A stretch of 32,000 bases of DNA from Candidatus Harpocratesius repetitus (GTDB lineage: Archaea > Asgardarchaeota > Lokiarchaeia > Sigyniarchaeales > Promethearchaeaceae), in NCBI GenBank assembly GCA_021498095.1, contig JAIZWK010000001.1, positions 2,250,001 through 2,282,000 of the forward strand, read 5' to 3'. This document shows, piece by piece, positions 9,381 to 18,375 of this stretch. A program made the position numbers and the translations under genes. The notes under the pieces were generated by a model. That model did not search any database. It was not told the origin of the DNA and saw nothing but the letters and a program-made list of their open reading frames with translations. The number at the start of each line of letters is the position of its first letter. The first letter of the stretch is position 1.

Positions 9381-9709
9381 ATAAAATGTGTAATTTTCTT
9401 TTTTAATATTAAATTATTCAATCTTCTATTCTTAGATCTACTTTTTAAGTAATATAATTTCCATTATTTCAAAATTTAAATTGATTTTATAGATTTTATT
9501 TATAATTACAAAATATAATAAAATTTTATGCTTCCATAATTTAAAATAAAATAGGAAAAATTGATTATTCCTATACGATTTTAGGGGAACAAAAATTGGT
9601 GAATAACCAAGCAAATCAAGCAAATTTTTTAAGATGCAAAGAGCAATACGTACTAAAGAATTGAAAATGAGGGAAGAACTTTTTCCCAATTGAGATGAAG
9701 GAACAAACC

Positions 9710-10828
9710 ATGGAAAACCTTTATGCAATAGTTATGGATATCGGGCAATTTTCGACAAAAATTGGATTTGGAGGTGAAAATCAACCTCGAAATATTTTTT
9801 ATACCATTACCGGGACTCCAAAATACAAAGCAATTGGAATTGAAGACACCAAGCAGTTATATATCGGGAATGAAATAATAGATTCTTTAGGATTGTATAA
9901 AGTACAGCATCCTATTGACAACGGCGGCGAAATAACCGATTGGGTGCATTTTGAAGCATTAATTGATTATGCATTTTATTTACTTCGAGTCGATCCTTCT
10001 GTTTGCAAAGTTCTATTCACTACGAATCCATTTTTATCTCGTGAATCAAAATTAAAACTATTTGAATTATTTATTGAGAGATATCAAGCTTGTTATTATC
10101 CTGTACGTGGCTCGTTATTAACAATGTATTCAGGTGGGTTTGATACGGGATTGGTTGTAGATATGGGTGCTGCCAATATTCGCATTACTCCAATTTACAA
10201 AGGATTCATTTTAGAACATGCAATTAAATTTCTTCCTTTAGGAGGAAATGTTTTAGATCAATTTATGCAAAAGAAAATGCAAGAATTAGGTATTTCGACT
10301 GAAAGTGCAGTGCAACGAAATTTAATTCGCGGTTTAAAGGAGCAAGCATGTTTTTGTTCTATTGATTTTGATACCGATCTTACTCAAAAAGATAAATTTG
10401 AACGTGAATATGAGTTGCCTGATTCATCGAAAGTAAAAATTGGAGAAGCACGATTTTTAGTTCCTGAATTACTCTTTAAACCTCAATTGATGAGTTTAGA
10501 TATTGAACCAATTCATAAAGCCATAATTCAAGTAGTTGAAGAGTGTGATGTAGATATTCGTCGAGATCTACTTCGAAATATATTTTTAACTGGTGGAAGT
10601 TCAATGTTTCCCTTTTTGGAAATACGTTTAAGGAGAGAATTAGAAGAAGAATTAAGTAATATGGGAAAAATTGCTCAAGACGTCCACATTATTGCACCGA
10701 AAGGTAGAGCACTTTCAAATTGGGTTGGTGGATCAATCTTGTCTATGATTCCTGATTTTCAAGAAAGATGGATAACCAGGAAAAAGTATTATGAAGAAGG
10801 TATTAGCGAAGAATTACTAAAAGCATAA
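9710..10828 (+). CDS. Divergent actin-family protein (Asgard actin-related homolog)
   Basis: Phosphate-1 'MDIGQFSTKIGFGGENQP', 'HPIDNGGEITDW', phosphate-2 'GLVVDMGAANIRITPIYKG', 'YELPD...IGEARFLVPELLFKP', adenosine motif 'IFLTGGSSMFP', 'WVGGSILS...WITRKKYYEEG'. Start at ATG 9710 or 9695. Confidence 0.95.
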   Translation: MENLYAIVMDIGQFSTKIGFGGENQPRNIFYTITGTPKYKAIGIEDTKQLYIGNEIIDSLGLYKVQHPIDNGGEITDWVHFEALIDYAFYLLRVDPSVCKVLFTTNPFLSRESKLKLFELFIERYQACYYPVRGSLLTMYSGGFDTGLVVDMGAANIRITPIYKGFILEHAIKFLPLGGNVLDQFMQKKMQELGISTESAVQRNLIRGLKEQACFCSIDFDTDLTQKDKFEREYELPDSSKVKIGEARFLVPELLFKPQLMSLDIEPIHKAIIQVVEECDVDIRRDLLRNIFLTGGSSMFPFLEIRLRRELEEELSNMGKIAQDVHIIAPKGRALSNWVGGSILSMIPDFQERWITRKKYYEEGISEELLKA

Positions 10829-10997
10829 CTTTTTTCAATATATCTATTTTTTAAAACAAGTTAAACGAGCATATCTCATACAAATATGTGAAATTTTAGA
10901 TATACTAAATGCTTTCATCTTAAAAAATAGCAATAATTTACAGAAGATATAAAAGATTAGAAAAGAGTTGGAAAACTACATTCTAGATCTTCTAAAA
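10749..10997 (+). repeat. Left copy of a 249-bp direct repeat (last 80 bp of the actin gene + 128-bp spacer + copy of the 3' end of the 79-aa gene)
   Basis: Matches 15222-15470 base for base except G10960 vs A15433. Constant offset of 4473, no indels. Confidence 0.97.
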
Positions 10998-11023
10998 TTT
11001 ATTGTTTTCATTTATCAAGAGAT

Positions 11024-12037
11024 TTACATTATCAATTCATAACCGCTTTTCAATTTAAATCTGGGTCTGAACTTTTTTGCCCACCTTATAAATCGTTCAC
11101 GCAATTCCTTTTCTGGAATTTGCTCCGCAGCAATTAACGCATAGTCCATAAATTTAATCCGCTCAGCGGTCCAGACGGTTTCAAAGCCATATTCTTCAAA
11201 AAATAGCTTCTCCCACTCCTTATAACGCTCGATATTTTCCTGCTTTCGGGGATGGATGAACGAATCAAAAATGAGCATAAAATTTTCGCTGTTATCAAAC
11301 TGGGTGCAGTCCCAGAACTCAATCGGTAGAAAGGAAATATGAGGGATGTGAGGAAGATTTGAAATGTTAATCCACAGCCTTGGGTTATGGGTAAATTCAA
11401 TCGGAATCTCTTTTACTTCCCGCAAACTCCATAACTCCAATTTTTTGAGAGAAAGGCAGAATGCCCAATTGATGGGAATCTGCTTCATGCGGTGCTTTCC
11501 ATCGCTTTTAGGCGGCAGCGTTATTTTTTCACCATCGAACATATTTGCATACCACTCACAAAGAAAATCTTCATGAATAGAAATATTGCGCAAGCGATAG
11601 CAGTGGGCGAAATCTATGTTGTAGTCATCTAAAACTGCACCAATTGTTCTGAATTCCCGTAAATATTGGTATTGATCGCATTTTAGGGGTATTTTTAGAT
11701 TGGGATATTCAAAAATAAGAATATATTCTATTTTAGGCGGCCATTTAACCACCTGCAGCTGATTTTCTCCAGATATTTCAATTTCTCTGCAGTTGATGAA
11801 GGCGGAAAAATCCGCTTCATTATTGGGATAAATACATTCATATACTTCTAATCTGTAAATTTTATCCACATCTTTCAATTTTTTGATATCGAAAACTTCA
11901 CCTGCAATTGTCAATACTTTTTTTTTTTCATCGTGATAATCGTATCTTGTATATGCCAAAGTATTAATTACCTTCTTAACCCTTCTGCTTTCATTAATTT
12001 TCCCTTTTTTCCTGTATACCTTTATTTTCTTATCCAA
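11024..12037 (-). CDS. Hypothetical protein with degenerate leucine-rich-repeat-like segments (337 aa)
   Basis: LRR-like spacing in 'CREIEISGENQL', 'LREFRTIG', 'LRNISIHED', 'LKKLELWSLREVKEIPIEF'. TTG start. Stop lies 26 bp from the left repeat. Confidence 0.65.
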   Translation of the reverse strand: MDKKIKVYRKKGKINESRRVKKVINTLAYTRYDYHDEKKKVLTIAGEVFDIKKLKDVDKIYRLEVYECIYPNNEADFSAFINCREIEISGENQLQVVKWPPKIEYILIFEYPNLKIPLKCDQYQYLREFRTIGAVLDDYNIDFAHCYRLRNISIHEDFLCEWYANMFDGEKITLPPKSDGKHRMKQIPINWAFCLSLKKLELWSLREVKEIPIEFTHNPRLWINISNLPHIPHISFLPIEFWDCTQFDNSENFMLIFDSFIHPRKQENIERYKEWEKLFFEEYGFETVWTAERIKFMDYALIAAEQIPEKELRERFIRWAKKFRPRFKLKSGYELIM

Positions 12038-12094
12038 TGTATATAAAAAAAAACGATATTAAAAAATTAACCCCCTCTTCGGCGAACTTATTTT

Positions 12095-14950
12095 TTATCC
12101 GACAAATCCCTCAATCGCATCCAAATATGCATCAAAACTATTCATGGCACTTTCATCGGCATATTTTTCGTAGTATAAGCGCATCTCGTTTTTGTACTTT
12201 AAAAAGTATGCGAAACACTGCTTCAGCATCAACAACTGCGAATTTGAGTTGAATATGCTAACGGGATTTTCAATCTGTGCGTACCATCGGTCGAGTCGGG
12301 AGTCAAATTGAATGTTGCCGTTCTCATCCAAAGTGGGAACGAAGTATTCGATTGATTCATCTTCATTTATTTTAATTGTTATGGTTTCACCTTTAACGCC
12401 GAATGCCTTGATGATACCTTCGAGTCGTTTCCATGTGGCAATGTATGCATTACTAACACCATTTTTTGATTTCATTAATAATTTGATATCGTTGAAAAAT
12501 TTTTTCTTTTTTAAATTTGAATCTTTCAAATCCTGTTCGGATGAATGCAGTGTATACTGCTCATAAACCCACTTTGCCAGCACGGATACGGAGTCTCGGA
12601 TGCCGGAGCCTTGAAATTGTGCAAGATTGCGGAGGTTGAAAAAGGCTCGACAGTCTTCAAGTTCAATCAGCACCATTTTAGAGGCGTCTCCACCAATTTC
12701 TGGACTTTTCATCATTTTCGTAAATGTATTAATACCATCTTGATTATTAAATATGTTTATCATAGATAAGCCGTTCTGGAAGGCGGTCCAAACCTTGCGC
12801 GCCTTTTCTGTATAATATTCAGTATCGATTGCATCTGCCCCATGCATTCCCACGCCGTAAATACCGGGATACCGCCAATTAACCGCACCGCCTTCCGCTC
12901 CGAGTAAGTTCAGCATATTCTCAAATACCAGAAAATCCATAACGAAGCGCTCAATTCCATTATTTATATCGGGTCTATTGGTTTTATAATATTCTTCATT
13001 CACCGGGTCCCACATATCCATGGAAAACTGCGGAATTATCATGGAATAGGGCGAAGGCGTGGTAGGGACAATGTCTTTAATTTCATCTGAGATCGGGGTG
13101 CCAAGTTGGAAGAATTTGATAGTATGAGCCTCATCATTTTGAATTTGACCGACCATACTTCCGAACACCAGCACTTCTAAGCCTGAACCTATTACTTCAC
13201 TTTTAGCCATTCCAAATTGTATGAAATTAGCAATAAAGGCGTTTTTTTTGGCGCCGATAATAATAATTGGGTCGGGAAGGGCGCTGGGGGGCACGTAGTA
13301 GTGATGATCATCGATTACTTTTTCTTTTAAATATTTCTCAATGTATTCATCATTTTTTTCACCTTTTCTTATATTATTTTCAAGCAGATAATCAATGGTT
13401 GAATGAAGTGCTTCGATGCTGGAGAAAAGTGATGCCAAAGACAGCCAAGCCGCCTGCAGCAGTTCCCATTCATGAATTTGTGTGCCTGATTTTAAATTGT
13501 TGACACTTTTTAATCTTGTATCTTTAATGAATTGTAAATATTCGCTGTATCCAAGTTTTTTCTGCAAAAATTGGGTTAAATAATCAGCGGCACCTCCAAG
13601 GTTAACAGAAATTTTATTATCTGTAAAACCTCCTGCATCTTGGGAAATTTCAATTATTTTATTTAAAATATATTCAATTTGATTGATTACCCCGCTGTTC
13701 CATTCTAACGTTCTATCCTTCTTTTTACGGGCAGTCCGCCAGTATTTACGAGTTTCATCATTATCGAACAATTCTTTAAGCAGAACATCTAAATAACCGA
13801 TTGATTTTCCAGAATCATCGTAAACTATTACACCTTCTAAAGATTCATCAAAGAAATGCTCTTTTAATTCTGTGCCTATGCCGGGAAGGTCTTTATTCAA
13901 AGCGTTAAAATCAATAAATAAGTCTCTAAGCTGCTCTGCAATATCGGGAACATTCTTATAAATATTTTTTAATGTTGTTCTAATTTTTTGTAAGCCTGAT
14001 TTAAAATTCCATCCTCTTACATTTTTTCTATTTTTATAAAATGATCTTACACCAGCTATATTGTCTTCTGCAATTTTTTGAAAAGCAAATGAAAGCAACC
14101 GAATTTCAAACATTCCTTTGCGCCAATTTATATTGGTATATATTGGAGTATTTTCTCCTTCGATGGTTTTTGCACTTTCCACCTTATTATTTACTAAAAT
14201 TCTTACGGTTTGAGATTTTGGATATGAGAAAATTTGATAATACTGCTCTCCAATTTTAATGGGTAGAAACAGCATCTGGATTTTCGGATTTTTAATCAAA
14301 CCGAGTGGTATTTTTGAATCTTTTACCCCATTTACATTTTCAAATCCGAGCTCCTTAAGAATCTGCTCCAAACTCATATCAATATCTATGCCAACTTTAA
14401 TTTCTATGAGAGTATTATCATTCATTCCCGCTTTTTTATATACAAATCCTTTTTCATGTCCGATTAAATTAATATACCTGTAATTAAAGTTGGTGAAAAG
14501 TTGAATGCTATCTTTCCAGTATTTCGCATTCGCATTTAATTTATTGGTTCCGATTATTTTTTTCATCATTGTTTGATAATCGGGAAGTTTTGTGCCAAGA
14601 ATATCTTTGATAATATCATTATCAATGGGGTCAACCACAGAGATTTTTCGGGCATTGGTGAGCCAATTAGTGACGATTATCTGCTCGGTGGTTTTGAGGG
14701 TGGAAAATTCATTGGTTTCTTTATCGAACTGGTAAACGAAACCGTCTTCTTTGGCTTTGAATGTTTCGCCGCTATCGGTTATTTTTTCAATGAATATTTC
14801 TTTTCCTTCGGGGACGTTCCATAGATCATGCAGTTCGGTGTTTTTCAAGAATTCATCGACCGAAAGGTCTTTGAACATGAATAATGCAGCAGTGACGTCT
14901 AATCTTCTCCCCTTAACCATGGAATACGGGTTTGCGAATTTTTTAATCAC
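12095..14950 (-). CDS. Large hypothetical protein (951 aa), no recognised family; possibly a 5'-truncated fragment of a larger gene
   Basis: 2.86-kb open frame. GTG start without a clear SD (ATG at 14920 is an alternative). No signal peptide or transmembrane segment evident. Confidence 0.8.
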   Translation of the reverse strand: MIKKFANPYSMVKGRRLDVTAALFMFKDLSVDEFLKNTELHDLWNVPEGKEIFIEKITDSGETFKAKEDGFVYQFDKETNEFSTLKTTEQIIVTNWLTNARKISVVDPIDNDIIKDILGTKLPDYQTMMKKIIGTNKLNANAKYWKDSIQLFTNFNYRYINLIGHEKGFVYKKAGMNDNTLIEIKVGIDIDMSLEQILKELGFENVNGVKDSKIPLGLIKNPKIQMLFLPIKIGEQYYQIFSYPKSQTVRILVNNKVESAKTIEGENTPIYTNINWRKGMFEIRLLSFAFQKIAEDNIAGVRSFYKNRKNVRGWNFKSGLQKIRTTLKNIYKNVPDIAEQLRDLFIDFNALNKDLPGIGTELKEHFFDESLEGVIVYDDSGKSIGYLDVLLKELFDNDETRKYWRTARKKKDRTLEWNSGVINQIEYILNKIIEISQDAGGFTDNKISVNLGGAADYLTQFLQKKLGYSEYLQFIKDTRLKSVNNLKSGTQIHEWELLQAAWLSLASLFSSIEALHSTIDYLLENNIRKGEKNDEYIEKYLKEKVIDDHHYYVPPSALPDPIIIIGAKKNAFIANFIQFGMAKSEVIGSGLEVLVFGSMVGQIQNDEAHTIKFFQLGTPISDEIKDIVPTTPSPYSMIIPQFSMDMWDPVNEEYYKTNRPDINNGIERFVMDFLVFENMLNLLGAEGGAVNWRYPGIYGVGMHGADAIDTEYYTEKARKVWTAFQNGLSMINIFNNQDGINTFTKMMKSPEIGGDASKMVLIELEDCRAFFNLRNLAQFQGSGIRDSVSVLAKWVYEQYTLHSSEQDLKDSNLKKKKFFNDIKLLMKSKNGVSNAYIATWKRLEGIIKAFGVKGETITIKINEDESIEYFVPTLDENGNIQFDSRLDRWYAQIENPVSIFNSNSQLLMLKQCFAYFLKYKNEMRLYYEKYADESAMNSFDAYLDAIEGFVG

Positions 14951-14995
14951 GATTTCGGGCGATTTACCAGGATGAACTTCCTGCAGCCCAATTTT

Positions 14996-15205
14996 CTATA
15001 TCCGACTGCATGTGAACAGCGGTGCAATTTGTAGAAAAAACTGAAAATCATTAAAAAATATCATTAATTTTTCTCGAGCAAATTCAAAAGACATTTCTAA
15101 AATTAAGGGCTCAATAACTTTTTTCCAATCAATTTTCAACAATTTTTGACAAGATGAAAGAAAAGTTTGGTTAATATTAATGATTTTATCTTTTAAATTT
15201 TCCAT
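14996..15205 (-). CDS. Possible small ORF or gene remnant (MENLKDKIIN...), in frame with the 951-aa ORF
   Basis: ATG at 15205, TAG at 14996-14998. Same frame as 12095..14950 with no other stop between them. The AT-rich part looks host-like. Confidence 0.3.
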   Translation of the reverse strand: MENLKDKIININQTFLSSCQKLLKIDWKKVIEPLILEMSFEFAREKLMIFFNDFQFFLQIAPLFTCSRI

Positions 15206-15221
15206 ATATTGTTTACAGATT

Positions 15222-15470
15222 TTCCTGATTTTCAAGAAAGATGGATAACCAGGAAAAAGTATTATGAAGAAGGTATTAGCGAAGAATTACTAAAAGCATA
15301 ACTTTTTTCAATATATCTATTTTTTAAAACAAGTTAAACGAGCATATCTCATACAAATATGTGAAATTTTAGATATACTAAATGCTTTCATCTTAAAAAA
15401 TAGCAATAATTTACAGAAGATATAAAAGATTAAAAAAGAGTTGGAAAACTACATTCTAGATCTTCTAAAA
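15222..15470 (+). repeat. Right copy of the 249-bp direct repeat (orphan actin tail PDFQERWITRKKYYEEGISEELLKA* + spacer + true 3' end of the 79-aa gene)
   Basis: 248/249 identical to 10749-10997. Confidence 0.97.
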
Positions 15471-15669
15471 CATTAGTAAGGTATTCAATGCAATTCGCAG
15501 AGTTAATTTTTTTAGACAGGTAATGTAATAAATTTCGAGCAATTTTCCTATCTTCTGCAGTATATTTTTCTTTATCACCGAAAATATAGTTGAATTCTTC
15601 ACGAATAAAGTTTATTTCATTAATAATGGTCTGATCGATTTCTGAAGAGAAATTTATACGAATTTGCAT
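15430..15669 (-). CDS. Hypothetical protein (79 aa), convergent with the actin gene at the reconstructed empty site
   Basis: ATG...TAA with plausible helical composition. Its last 41 bp lie in the right repeat. The only difference between repeat copies is synonymous in this frame (TTT/TTC Phe). Confidence 0.7.
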   Translation of the reverse strand: MQIRINFSSEIDQTIINEINFIREEFNYIFGDKEKYTAEDRKIARNLLHYLSKKINSANCIEYLTNVLEDLECSFPTLF

Positions 15670-16956: not shown

Positions 16957-18375
16957 TTAGCTTTCTTGAGATTTAATCGGCTCTACAAATCGGACCATCT
17001 CTACTTTGTAGAGTTTTTTTTGCAGCTGCAGCGCATCCTTTACTGGAACTTTCTGTCCAGTTAGAATACCACGTAATAAACGTAAACCATATTCCCAAGT
17101 GCCAATAAAATGTACTTTTTCCCATAACCAAATTAATAGTTGGAAAAAGCCAATTGATGTTAGGGTTAAGGCTATTGTCCACCATTTATTCACTGTACAA
17201 CGATGCGCTAGATCTAAATTAAAGATTGCAGCAAAGGCAACCCTTATAAAACCATCCAACCATTGGTAAATAAAAATAGAGAGTGCAATCATTCCCCAAC
17301 GACGAATAGGAAGTGAATATTTTAACCATTTTTCTTCATTTAATTTTGGATTAAATTCCACTAATCGAAAAAGCAGTAGAATAACATATCCTTGGAAAGC
17401 TGTATTAATGAATATAAACCAAGTTGGATGGATGTGAAATGCTGGATCAAAAATAAAAGTCCCATTAACAATTTCTAACGCAATAACAATTCCACCTATT
17501 ATCAATAATACTAAACATCCTAAATATGCATATCTAATATGGCGAATGGTTGGCTTTTCTTGAGCAATAATCTCTCCAATACAAGATCCAAAGAAAGTAA
17601 TGCCTAACATTGGGAAAACAGGTGCTTCCCGGCCTCCCAACCACACTAAAATTGTTCTTCTGAATGGATAAACTACATCATCCATGAAATGATCTCCGGA
17701 TTGAAGTGTCCAATCTACATTAGGATCTGGCCATATTACTAAAGTGTTAACCCAATTTTGGACCAACGGTGAAATTAGAAAAATGGTGCATCCAATTGAA
17801 AAATAAATTGCAATTTTAATTATTGGTTTGTCTAGATAATGAAGTAGGAAAAAGAACAATGCAGAAAATAAAATTCCAAAAGCAATTACATCTAGTGCTT
17901 CGACAAAATAGAAGAAGTCAAGTTTTTCTGAATGCCATGTCCAATCCCGAAACAATTCATCAAACACACCCCAGGTTGTAAAAAAAGTGGTATATATTTT
18001 AGCAATAATTAACACAATAAAAGAGTATATTACTTCGTTGAGAAGAATTTTGCTGTGGGCAACTCCTCGCTTTTCTGCTTCAACCATTCTGTAATAAGTA
18101 ACAACACCACTTATCAGTATAAAAAATCCACGCCAGTGAGTAATAATGATAACTATTCCGGCAATAGGTAACATCCAAGCTTTTAGCAAAGAAATATTTG
18201 CATGACCTATTAAATACCATACCGCAAGCATCATGTGTACTGCAACCATGAAAATAATTGCGATTCCTCGTAAAAAATCTAAAGAAGTCAAACGCTTCAT
18301 AATTACTGTTTCTTGTAAAACTTTAAAATTGTTTAGAACGATTGATTCTAACACTAAAAGGATTGTATTAATCAT
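16957..18375 (-). CDS. Multi-pass membrane protein, acyltransferase-3 / DUF1624 (HGSNAT-like) family
   Basis: N-terminal 'RLTSLDFLRGIAIIFMVAVH', 'FFILISG', 'PVFPMLG', 'GMIALSIFIYQ', and about 10-12 TM segments. True start may be ATG 18300. Confidence 0.75.
   Translation of the reverse strand: MINTILLVLESIVLNNFKVLQETVIMKRLTSLDFLRGIAIIFMVAVHMMLAVWYLIGHANISLLKAWMLPIAGIVIIITHWRGFFILISGVVTYYRMVEAEKRGVAHSKILLNEVIYSFIVLIIAKIYTTFFTTWGVFDELFRDWTWHSEKLDFFYFVEALDVIAFGILFSALFFFLLHYLDKPIIKIAIYFSIGCTIFLISPLVQNWVNTLVIWPDPNVDWTLQSGDHFMDDVVYPFRRTILVWLGGREAPVFPMLGITFFGSCIGEIIAQEKPTIRHIRYAYLGCLVLLIIGGIVIALEIVNGTFIFDPAFHIHPTWFIFINTAFQGYVILLLFRLVEFNPKLNEEKWLKYSLPIRRWGMIALSIFIYQWLDGFIRVAFAAIFNLDLAHRCTVNKWWTIALTLTSIGFFQLLIWLWEKVHFIGTWEYGLRLLRGILTGQKVPVKDALQLQKKLYKVEMVRFVEPIKSQES

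Follow-up and report, generated by a model that had tools for sequence, protein, structure and literature searches.

A two-gene cassette between 249-bp direct repeats beside an actin-family gene of Candidatus Harpocratesius repetitus: an insertion with long target duplication in an Asgard archaeon

In the genome of Candidatus Harpocratesius repetitus, an Asgard archaeon of the Lokiarchaeia, an actin-family gene and the 79-aa gene that converges with it are separated by a cassette of two genes that stands between two long direct repeats. The locus lies in a stretch of 32,000 nucleotides (GenBank assembly GCA_021498095.1, contig JAIZWK010000001.1, positions 2,250,001 to 2,282,000 of the forward strand), which as a whole is referred to as the window and whose numbering is used for positions given without another reference. 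The genome is deposited as a 4.36-Mb single record with one 10-N gap and 31.0% GC, very probably a Canu assembly of Nanopore reads with subsequent pilon polishing. The features of the locus are collected in Table 1. An earlier note, made from the letters of the window alone, had described the repeats, their composition, two intact host genes, and an orphan gene tail on either side of the insert, and all of this is confirmed by repeat search and pairwise alignment. The two copies align without gaps over 249 bp with 248 identical positions, and homology breaks off sharply at either side. In each copy, the terminal 80 bp of the actin gene are followed by a 128-bp spacer and by the 3′-terminal 41 bp of the 79-aa gene. 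The sole mismatch (G at 10960 and A at 15433) is a synonymous change in a Phe codon, which reads TTC in the orphan tail and TTT in the live 79-aa gene; the stop codon is unaffected. Within the 4.36-Mb genome, the 249-bp sequence occurs in exactly two copies, with no free or differently placed copy.

Table 1. Coordinates of the features at the actin locus (window numbering)
Feature	Position	Strand	Evidence
Actin-family gene, 377 aa, intact; last 80 bp inside the left repeat copy	9695..10828	+	Pfam Actin E=1e-78; syntenic orthologues
Left copy of the 249-bp duplication, with the live end of actin (80 bp), the spacer (128 bp), and a 41-bp orphan end of the 79-aa gene	10749..10997	.	Repeat search, alignment, genome count
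Left copy, actin tail	10749-10828		
Left copy, spacer	10829-10956		
Left copy, tail of the 79-aa gene	10957-10997		
7-nt microhomology TTCTAAA, common to the target (coding sequence of the 79-aa gene) and donor-like paralogs	10990..10996	.	Alignment with paralogs
Inserted DNA, 4,224 bp, missing at the same site in relatives	10998..15221	.	Empty sites in L036-L039 and metagenome contig
337-aa cargo gene of unknown function, LRR-like in its N-terminal part and helical in its C-terminal part	11024..12037	-	No family match; AF2/Foldseek
951-aa cargo gene of unknown function; its C-terminal ~480 residues form the core conserved across the family	12095..14950	-	No family or PDB match
Upstream region of the 951-aa gene, 96% identical to the 2.917-Mb paralog; probable promoter or leader carried in with the insert	14951..15029	-	Sequence comparison
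Right insert end, 192 bp, AT-rich (21% GC)	15030..15221	.	No match in this genome or 30 relatives
Right copy of the duplication, with the orphan end of actin (15222-15301), the spacer, and the live end of the 79-aa gene	15222..15470	.	Repeat search, alignment, genome count
79-aa gene, intact, conserved, convergent with actin in all relatives examined	15430..15669	-	tblastn, 4 relatives

The state of the locus before the insertion is preserved in related genomes. The orthologous actin gene was located in 30 relatives. Actin orthologues of 62–84% identity stand in a conserved gene order, and the gene order of the locus was compared in four of these genomes, namely G002 and G001 from the same genus (87% and 92% complete, respectively) and the closed genomes G011 and G010 from other genera. 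The order in all four is zinc-ribbon protein, Ras-like GTPase, actin, convergent 79-aa gene, and alpha/beta hydrolase, with the 79-aa gene recognized by tblastn at the syntenic position (48–71% identity; loci L036-L039) and with nothing between it and actin. Furthermore, a contig from an unrelated marine-sediment run joins position 10828 to position 15411 with three letters between, and represents the empty site of a further relative. Because four relatives and one metagenome contig have the two genes directly convergent, the 4,224 bp between the repeat copies are a derived insertion. The comparison with related Lokiarchaeia, which the earlier note had proposed, has therefore yielded the empty site that was sought, and the case that the note had named as fatal to its reading, i.e., relatives carrying the cargo as ordinary syntenic genes, is found in none of the four.

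The insert encodes two proteins of 337 and 951 aa, neither of which has a match in Pfam, NCBIfam, PHROGs, PADLOC, or the sequences of the Protein Data Bank (PDB). In particular, no methylase, nuclease, or defence match was obtained in Pfam or PADLOC, and a feature search of the ESM Atlas gave no usable match. The AlphaFold2 (AF2) model of the 951-aa protein is poor (predicted local distance difference test score, 60.6) and has no fold match in a Foldseek search of the PDB. The modelled N-terminal part of the 337-aa protein weakly resembles leucine-rich-repeat (LRR) solenoids; residues 30–160 are modelled with confidence, and all top Foldseek matches are LRR proteins at weak values (E>=6e-3). 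A 79-codon open reading frame (ORF) across the right end of the insert (14996-15235) has no support and no family match in Pfam, NCBIfam, or PHROG. Scans of all ORFs with Pfam, NCBIfam, PHROG, and PADLOC detected no integrase or other recombinase, no transposase, and no reverse-transcriptase domain in the insert, and the repeat search detected no terminal inverted repeat at its ends; the lack of integrase, transposase, and inverted ends had been noticed from the letters already. The nearest match to a Resolvase domain lies approximately 19 kb from the insert, outside the window. The GC-richer character of the inserted DNA also holds, as computed for the insert as a whole (35.5% vs 31.0% in the genome).

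A rearrangement of this kind is already known. Insertion with long target duplication was defined as a class by Nobusato et al. (2000; Gene 259:99) and surveyed by Furuta, Abe, and Kobayashi (2010; Nucleic Acids Research, PMC2853133), and the published cases are bacterial restriction-modification systems with flanking duplications of 46–423 bp (Furuta et al., 2010). No archaeal case survived the screen in that survey, which left the mechanism open and suggested a role for double-strand breaks (Furuta et al., 2010). The structural features by which the survey delimited the class are present at the actin locus: the repeats are longer than 30 bp, an empty site with one copy exists, the repeat is not multi-copy, and the insert of 4.2 kb is shorter than 20 kb and has no transposase, integrase, resolvase, or phage gene in or beside it. 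The trait of cargo, a restriction-modification system, is missing here; this trait reflects how the published cases were searched for and not the rearrangement itself. The actin-locus insert is hence an archaeal case of insertion with long target duplication whose cargo is not a restriction enzyme. It resembles the published cases in being a mobility-free cassette with genome-unique repeats that far exceed the duplications made by transposons and that, as is often so in the class, lie over gene ends. It differs from them in its Asgard host, in a multi-copy pair of an LRR-like and a 951-aa gene without nuclease signature, and in the presence of paralogs that allow one junction to be read and a microhomology to be recognized.

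These paralogs were not expected from the earlier note, in which the two cargo genes were taken for orphans. Elsewhere in this genome, at least 11 long paralogous copies of the insert are present (82–93% DNA identity), and the gene pair has about five further distant copies (25–44% protein identity), which brings the family to at least 16 loci. By contrast, none was found in the 30 relatives, same-genus G001 and G002 included. Outside this genome, a 5.8-billion word-index search returned one cargo homologue, in Ca. Harpocratesius sp. (38% identity), and an exhaustive profile search added a few weak Lokiarchaeial matches without domains, homologues of the 951-aa protein being confined to Lokiarchaeia. 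The contexts of these weak matches were uninformative, one lying at a contig end and the L. ossiferum locus having no partner gene, and scans of viral and metagenome contigs retrieved no relative of the cargo. The ratio of nonsynonymous to synonymous substitution (dN/dS) between copies is 0.10–0.31 (337-aa gene, 0.10–0.31; 951-aa gene, 0.21–0.27), on which basis the cargo genes are kept by purifying selection. The copies differ in extent on both sides. Furthermore, the insert is a mosaic: the best-matching paralog switches approximately every 200 bp, and exact tracts of 96–182 bp come from at least five different paralogs. To judge from these tracts, family copies clearly exchange sequence by recombination. 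The proposal that the donor is missing and the cassette hence imported, which had rested on a synonymous divergence of approximately 0.4 to the paralogs against 0.004 between the repeats, is not decisive, given that the insert is a mosaic of paralog tracts. As a separate observation on the family, a non-coding repeat of approximately 315 bp resembling a miniature inverted-repeat transposable element (MITE), present in 54 copies of 90–95% identity (e.g., G000:C1:3262175-3262490), abuts the 3′ ends of three family copies, at 2.076, 2.654, and 3.262 Mb.

Several relatives of the cassette stand next to recombinase genes. The search of the genome for recombinases that the earlier note had advised found 12 Resolvase-domain genes, none of them in the insert; six of the 12 lie just upstream of family copies and in the same orientation (near 0.339, 2.027, 2.653, 3.267, 4.030, and 4.359 Mb), some with a MerR-type helix-turn-helix (HTH). 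A 3.85-kb unit that is 95% identical at 2.02, 4.03, and 4.36 Mb (L011:5357-9206, L012:5164-9013, and L015) holds an IS607-type gene for a MerR-HTH plus resolvase protein, truncated at about residue 140, a 98-aa ORF, and two family genes, one encoding 489 aa homologous to the C-terminal half of the 951-aa protein, the other an LRR-like partner of 331–405 aa. The cargo family thus has, or had, a link to small serine-recombinase elements. On these grounds, the cassette could be considered a non-autonomous derivative of the recombinase-carrying members that was moved by their enzyme acting in trans, the more so as an internal deletion has reduced the 2.653-Mb copy to the recombinase gene and the end of the 337-aa gene. 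Serine recombinases of the IS607 and resolvase/invertase types exchange strands at a 2-bp crossover without duplicating the target. Such an enzyme would hence have left none at the actin locus, the window copy has no recombinase gene and has ends that differ from those of the recombinase-carrying units, and three linked recombinase genes break off near residue 140; there is accordingly only a very slim chance that the cassette arrived in this manner.

The left junction provides the most direct information on how the cassette was joined to its target. Native sequence of the 79-aa gene continues to TTCTAAA(A) and is followed by 96 bp that are identical to the paralog at 1.574 Mb. This paralog and three others carry TTCTAAA themselves and run further left into shared family sequence. 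Because the four paralogs stay homologous to each other past TTCTAAA, the left join, as read from the alignment, is a 7-nt microhomology inside donor-like DNA rather than the terminus of an element. On the right side, the 951-aa gene is preceded by 79 bp with 96% identity to the 2.917-Mb paralog, and the final 192 bp have no match. Taken together, the empty sites, the duplication, and the left join indicate that a lineage-specific two-gene cassette was probably placed between the convergent gene ends by an illegitimate, microhomology-using event of the long-target-duplication class. Such an event would have engaged the target at 10748/10749 and at 10997/10998, and the 249 bp between these positions would have come to stand on both sides of the insert. 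The join would have been made by host repair or replication with no element-encoded enzyme involved, and two routes may be envisaged. In one, a break with 249-nt staggered ends would be filled in and a DNA fragment then joined by means of microhomology. In the other, a nascent strand would switch at TTCTAAA into a paralogous copy and return 249 bp behind its point of departure. The mosaic insert would fit repeated template switching, and it would fit later gene conversion equally well. The duplication covers whole gene ends together with the spacer, which leaves each host gene with its native 3′ end, and the insertion would for this reason be tolerated. The two repeats may now serve as substrates for homologous recombination, leading to loss or amplification of the cassette, and a clean excision by recombination between them is plausible.

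The same geometry would result if a 4,473-bp circle with one 249-bp actin/79-aa segment had entered by a single homologous crossover of the Campbell type and could leave by the same route, which is how the earlier note had understood the locus: a circle that uses a captured host terminus as its landing pad. The product geometry is exactly that of a single crossover, the repeats have 99.6% identity and a length sufficient for homologous recombination, and paralogs in this genome do exchange tracts by recombination. Nevertheless, the circle would itself require two illegitimate joins between host and cassette plus an extra crossover, and it explains nothing more. It also has to accommodate a left join that is a 7-nt microhomology inside donor-like sequence, the lack of any third copy of the 249 bp in the genome, and other cassettes (described below) that duplicate their own, different targets, each of which would have had to acquire its future target in advance. 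A landing-pad circle is thus not demanded by the data, and with the left-end microhomology and the targets of the other cassettes opposing it, we consider it unlikely. The preferable reading is that the duplication arose during insertion and had not been brought in with the cassette, because the left join is a microhomology inside donor-like sequence and because an unrelated cassette duplicates its own target.

These other cassettes were found in the same genome. Relative to G001, the family copy at 1.334 Mb is inserted DNA. It is flanked by a duplication of approximately 80 bp from a promoter and gene start, which comprises the ribosome-binding site and first codons of the downstream gene and is single in G001, and it has 11–17 nt of homology between insert end and target. 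An unrelated, single-copy cassette of 2.5 kb at 510.8 kb (G000:C1:510694-513448) has a 118-bp target duplication, both copies of which align to the empty site in G002 (C6:71149-71264), and contains a 345-aa unknown protein and nested repeats. Together with the actin locus, three insertions with long duplication are therefore confirmed by empty sites. A methylase and restriction-enzyme cassette of the classical type, as in the published cases, is likewise present (G000:C1:117401-120366); between its 129-bp direct repeats of 98.4% identity lie genes for a DNA methylase of the N6/N4 type and for a Type II restriction enzyme (PADLOC REase_II, E=2.4e-42), and neither G001 nor G002 yielded an empty site for it. 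Across the genome, 16 direct-repeat pairs of 55–355 bp occur in two copies only and are spaced 0.8–15 kb apart; of these pairs, the two copies at the actin locus are the most alike. No empty site was confirmed for the repeat-flanked cassettes at 117 kb (the methylase cassette), 189 kb, and 378 kb, where the flanks were not found or the site in the relative is not simple, and no end motif is common to the repeat-flanked inserts. Within the cargo family, the duplication varies in length, being 249 bp at the actin locus and approximately 80 bp at 1.334 Mb, and no long flanking duplication was detected at two copies, those at 2.913 and 4.144 Mb, both of which are lineage-specific insertions. The suggestion of an actin-targeted element has consequently lost its footing: other copies lie at unrelated loci, and the 1.334-Mb copy duplicated part of a different target.

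Two further observations concern repeats and insertions near these cassettes. The insert of the 510-kb cassette (G000:C1:510812-513330) contains, at its positions 1454-2004, a nested MITE-like repeat of approximately 550 bp with about 35 genome copies. In the window, a second lineage-specific insertion lies 1.5 kb from the first: a 472-aa ORF at 16957-18375 on the minus strand, between the alpha/beta hydrolase gene and a 105-aa gene, is missing from that position in G002, G001, and G011, where its two neighbours are approximately 40 bp apart. This ORF has no Pfam match, no flanking repeat, and only distant paralogs (22–26%) in the genome.

The variable and long target duplications (249 bp and approximately 80 bp) also call to mind non-LTR (non-long-terminal-repeat) retroelements, and a transcript of the two-gene operon might have been copied in by target-primed reverse transcription with an enzyme encoded elsewhere. 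Many family copies end alike just past the stop codon of the 337-aa gene and differ at the 5′ side, the junction microhomology matches the 3′ end of such a transcript, and the genome has one intact and one broken RVT_1 gene. These RVT_1 genes lie elsewhere, however, and no reverse transcriptase is encoded in or near any copy; the insert includes 271 bp upstream of the start codon with a conserved promoter-like stretch; four paralogs run past the supposed common 3′ end; and some of the apparent 5′ truncations are fusions to other upstream genes. The unrelated cassette with its nested non-coding repeat has the same geometry as well, and an RNA-mediated origin appears quite improbable.

Support for the assembled structure was sought in data from the likely source sample, which consist of k-mer contigs. 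The flank contigs have depths of 17 and 19 and end 30 bp inside the repeat, and the repeat forms a contig of its own at a depth of 41.5, approximately twice that of the flanks, as two copies predict. The sole insert-specific single-copy contig (window 15025-15219) has a depth of 33, approximately 1.8 times that of the flanks. Depth is a noisy measure for short contigs, and the excess may stem from extra circular or amplified copies, from a second strain, or from noise; the first of these would suit the entry of a circle by single crossover. An artefact might have arisen if a free circle and an empty site were merged through their shared 249 bp, or if the repeat was collapsed or expanded during long-read assembly and polishing. 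In a k-mer graph, the integrated form gives the same junctions as a circle plus an empty site, no contig among those listed bridges a whole repeat copy, and the genome is repeat-rich, with one scaffold gap at an overlap-like repeat of 983 bp. Against an artefact, reads longer than 5 kb from what was very probably a Nanopore/Canu assembly would span the unit, the depth of the repeat is that predicted by the assembly, the two copies differ at one base, and two other such structures are matched base for base by empty sites in independent genomes; an artefact is thus very unlikely. The scaffold gap itself (4226758-4226767) is the only one in the record, and the direct repeat that flanks it (G000:C1:4225776-4228082, 99.9% identical) is probably an unresolved contig overlap rather than biology.

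Several points weigh against a microhomology-using insertion of the cassette. The integrated arrangement rests on the deposited long-read assembly. The right junction has no donor sequence, so that microhomology can be read at the left junction only. No single donor copy is present in the genome, the best overall paralog being 86–91% identical, and with a mosaic insert and no single donor, copying in, relocation, and import become indistinguishable. Several family copies adjoin serine-recombinase genes, which leaves some room for an enzyme acting in trans. Gene conversion could keep the 249-bp repeats alike, which would weaken any dating from their identity. Finally, the mechanism of the class is unsolved even in bacteria, and the staggered break and the template switch are candidate routes at the actin locus.

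The features of the insert may also be compared with those of known systems. Microhomology-mediated end joining and fork stalling and template switching/microhomology-mediated break-induced replication (FoSTeS/MMBIR) have been inferred mainly in eukaryotes and bacteria. They share with the present case the junction microhomology (7 nt here and 11–17 nt at the second insertion of the family), a segment copied or taken from a dispersed paralog, a duplication at the point of return, and a mosaic insert. They are, however, mechanisms and not a family of elements; here, the mosaic may equally reflect later gene conversion, and a role of replication is our inference. Transposons of the IS607 family and other small serine-recombinase transposons resemble the insert through the recombinase-linked members of the cargo family and the lack of inverted ends, whereas the window copy has neither a recombinase nor a TnpB-like gene, has a target duplication, and has other ends; an IS607-type transposon was therefore rejected. 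A classical insertion sequence or DNA transposon was set aside for want of a transposase, of inverted ends, and of a short duplication of fixed length, and an integrase-mediated integrative element was set aside in view of the missing integrase, repeats that are 249 bp of two protein-gene ends, and a target other than a tRNA gene. Aloposons of Heimdallarchaeum integrate at tRNA genes and carry, besides tandem genes for proteins of 3,000–6,000 aa, a gene for a MinD/ParA-like ATPase and three other conserved genes (Wu et al., 2022; PMC8813620), features that are all missing here. They are comparable in being Asgard-specific elements with large uncharacterised proteins, and were rejected because the cargo here is 951 plus 337 aa and the target is not a tRNA gene.

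The insert is accordingly not a new kind of mobile element, is neither actin-targeted nor self-mobilising, and has no special link to actin. What is new is the Asgard host, the non-restriction cargo, and the readable microhomology junction. Since 2000, insertions with long target duplication have been recognized as a way for genes lacking a mobility function to enter bacterial genomes, and the occurrence of several cases in one genome, two of them with paralogous cargo, together with such a junction, offers a handle on the mechanism. It is conceivable, if rather doubtful, that in this Asgard lineage the host regularly gains and shuffles genes through this type of insertion, for which there are up to 16 candidate sites. 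Archaeal Okazaki fragments are reported to be short and eukaryote-like, and their size overlaps that of the 55–355-bp duplications; if the route is indeed a regular one, this overlap would point to template switching of nascent strands at replication forks. Repeat-flanked cassettes could then also pop out and re-enter by homologous recombination, and would in this way form recombinase-free mobile units within the population. The cases described here illustrate how lineage-specific genes are gained and spread by a repeat-rich relative of the eukaryotic ancestor while neighbours such as actin are spared.

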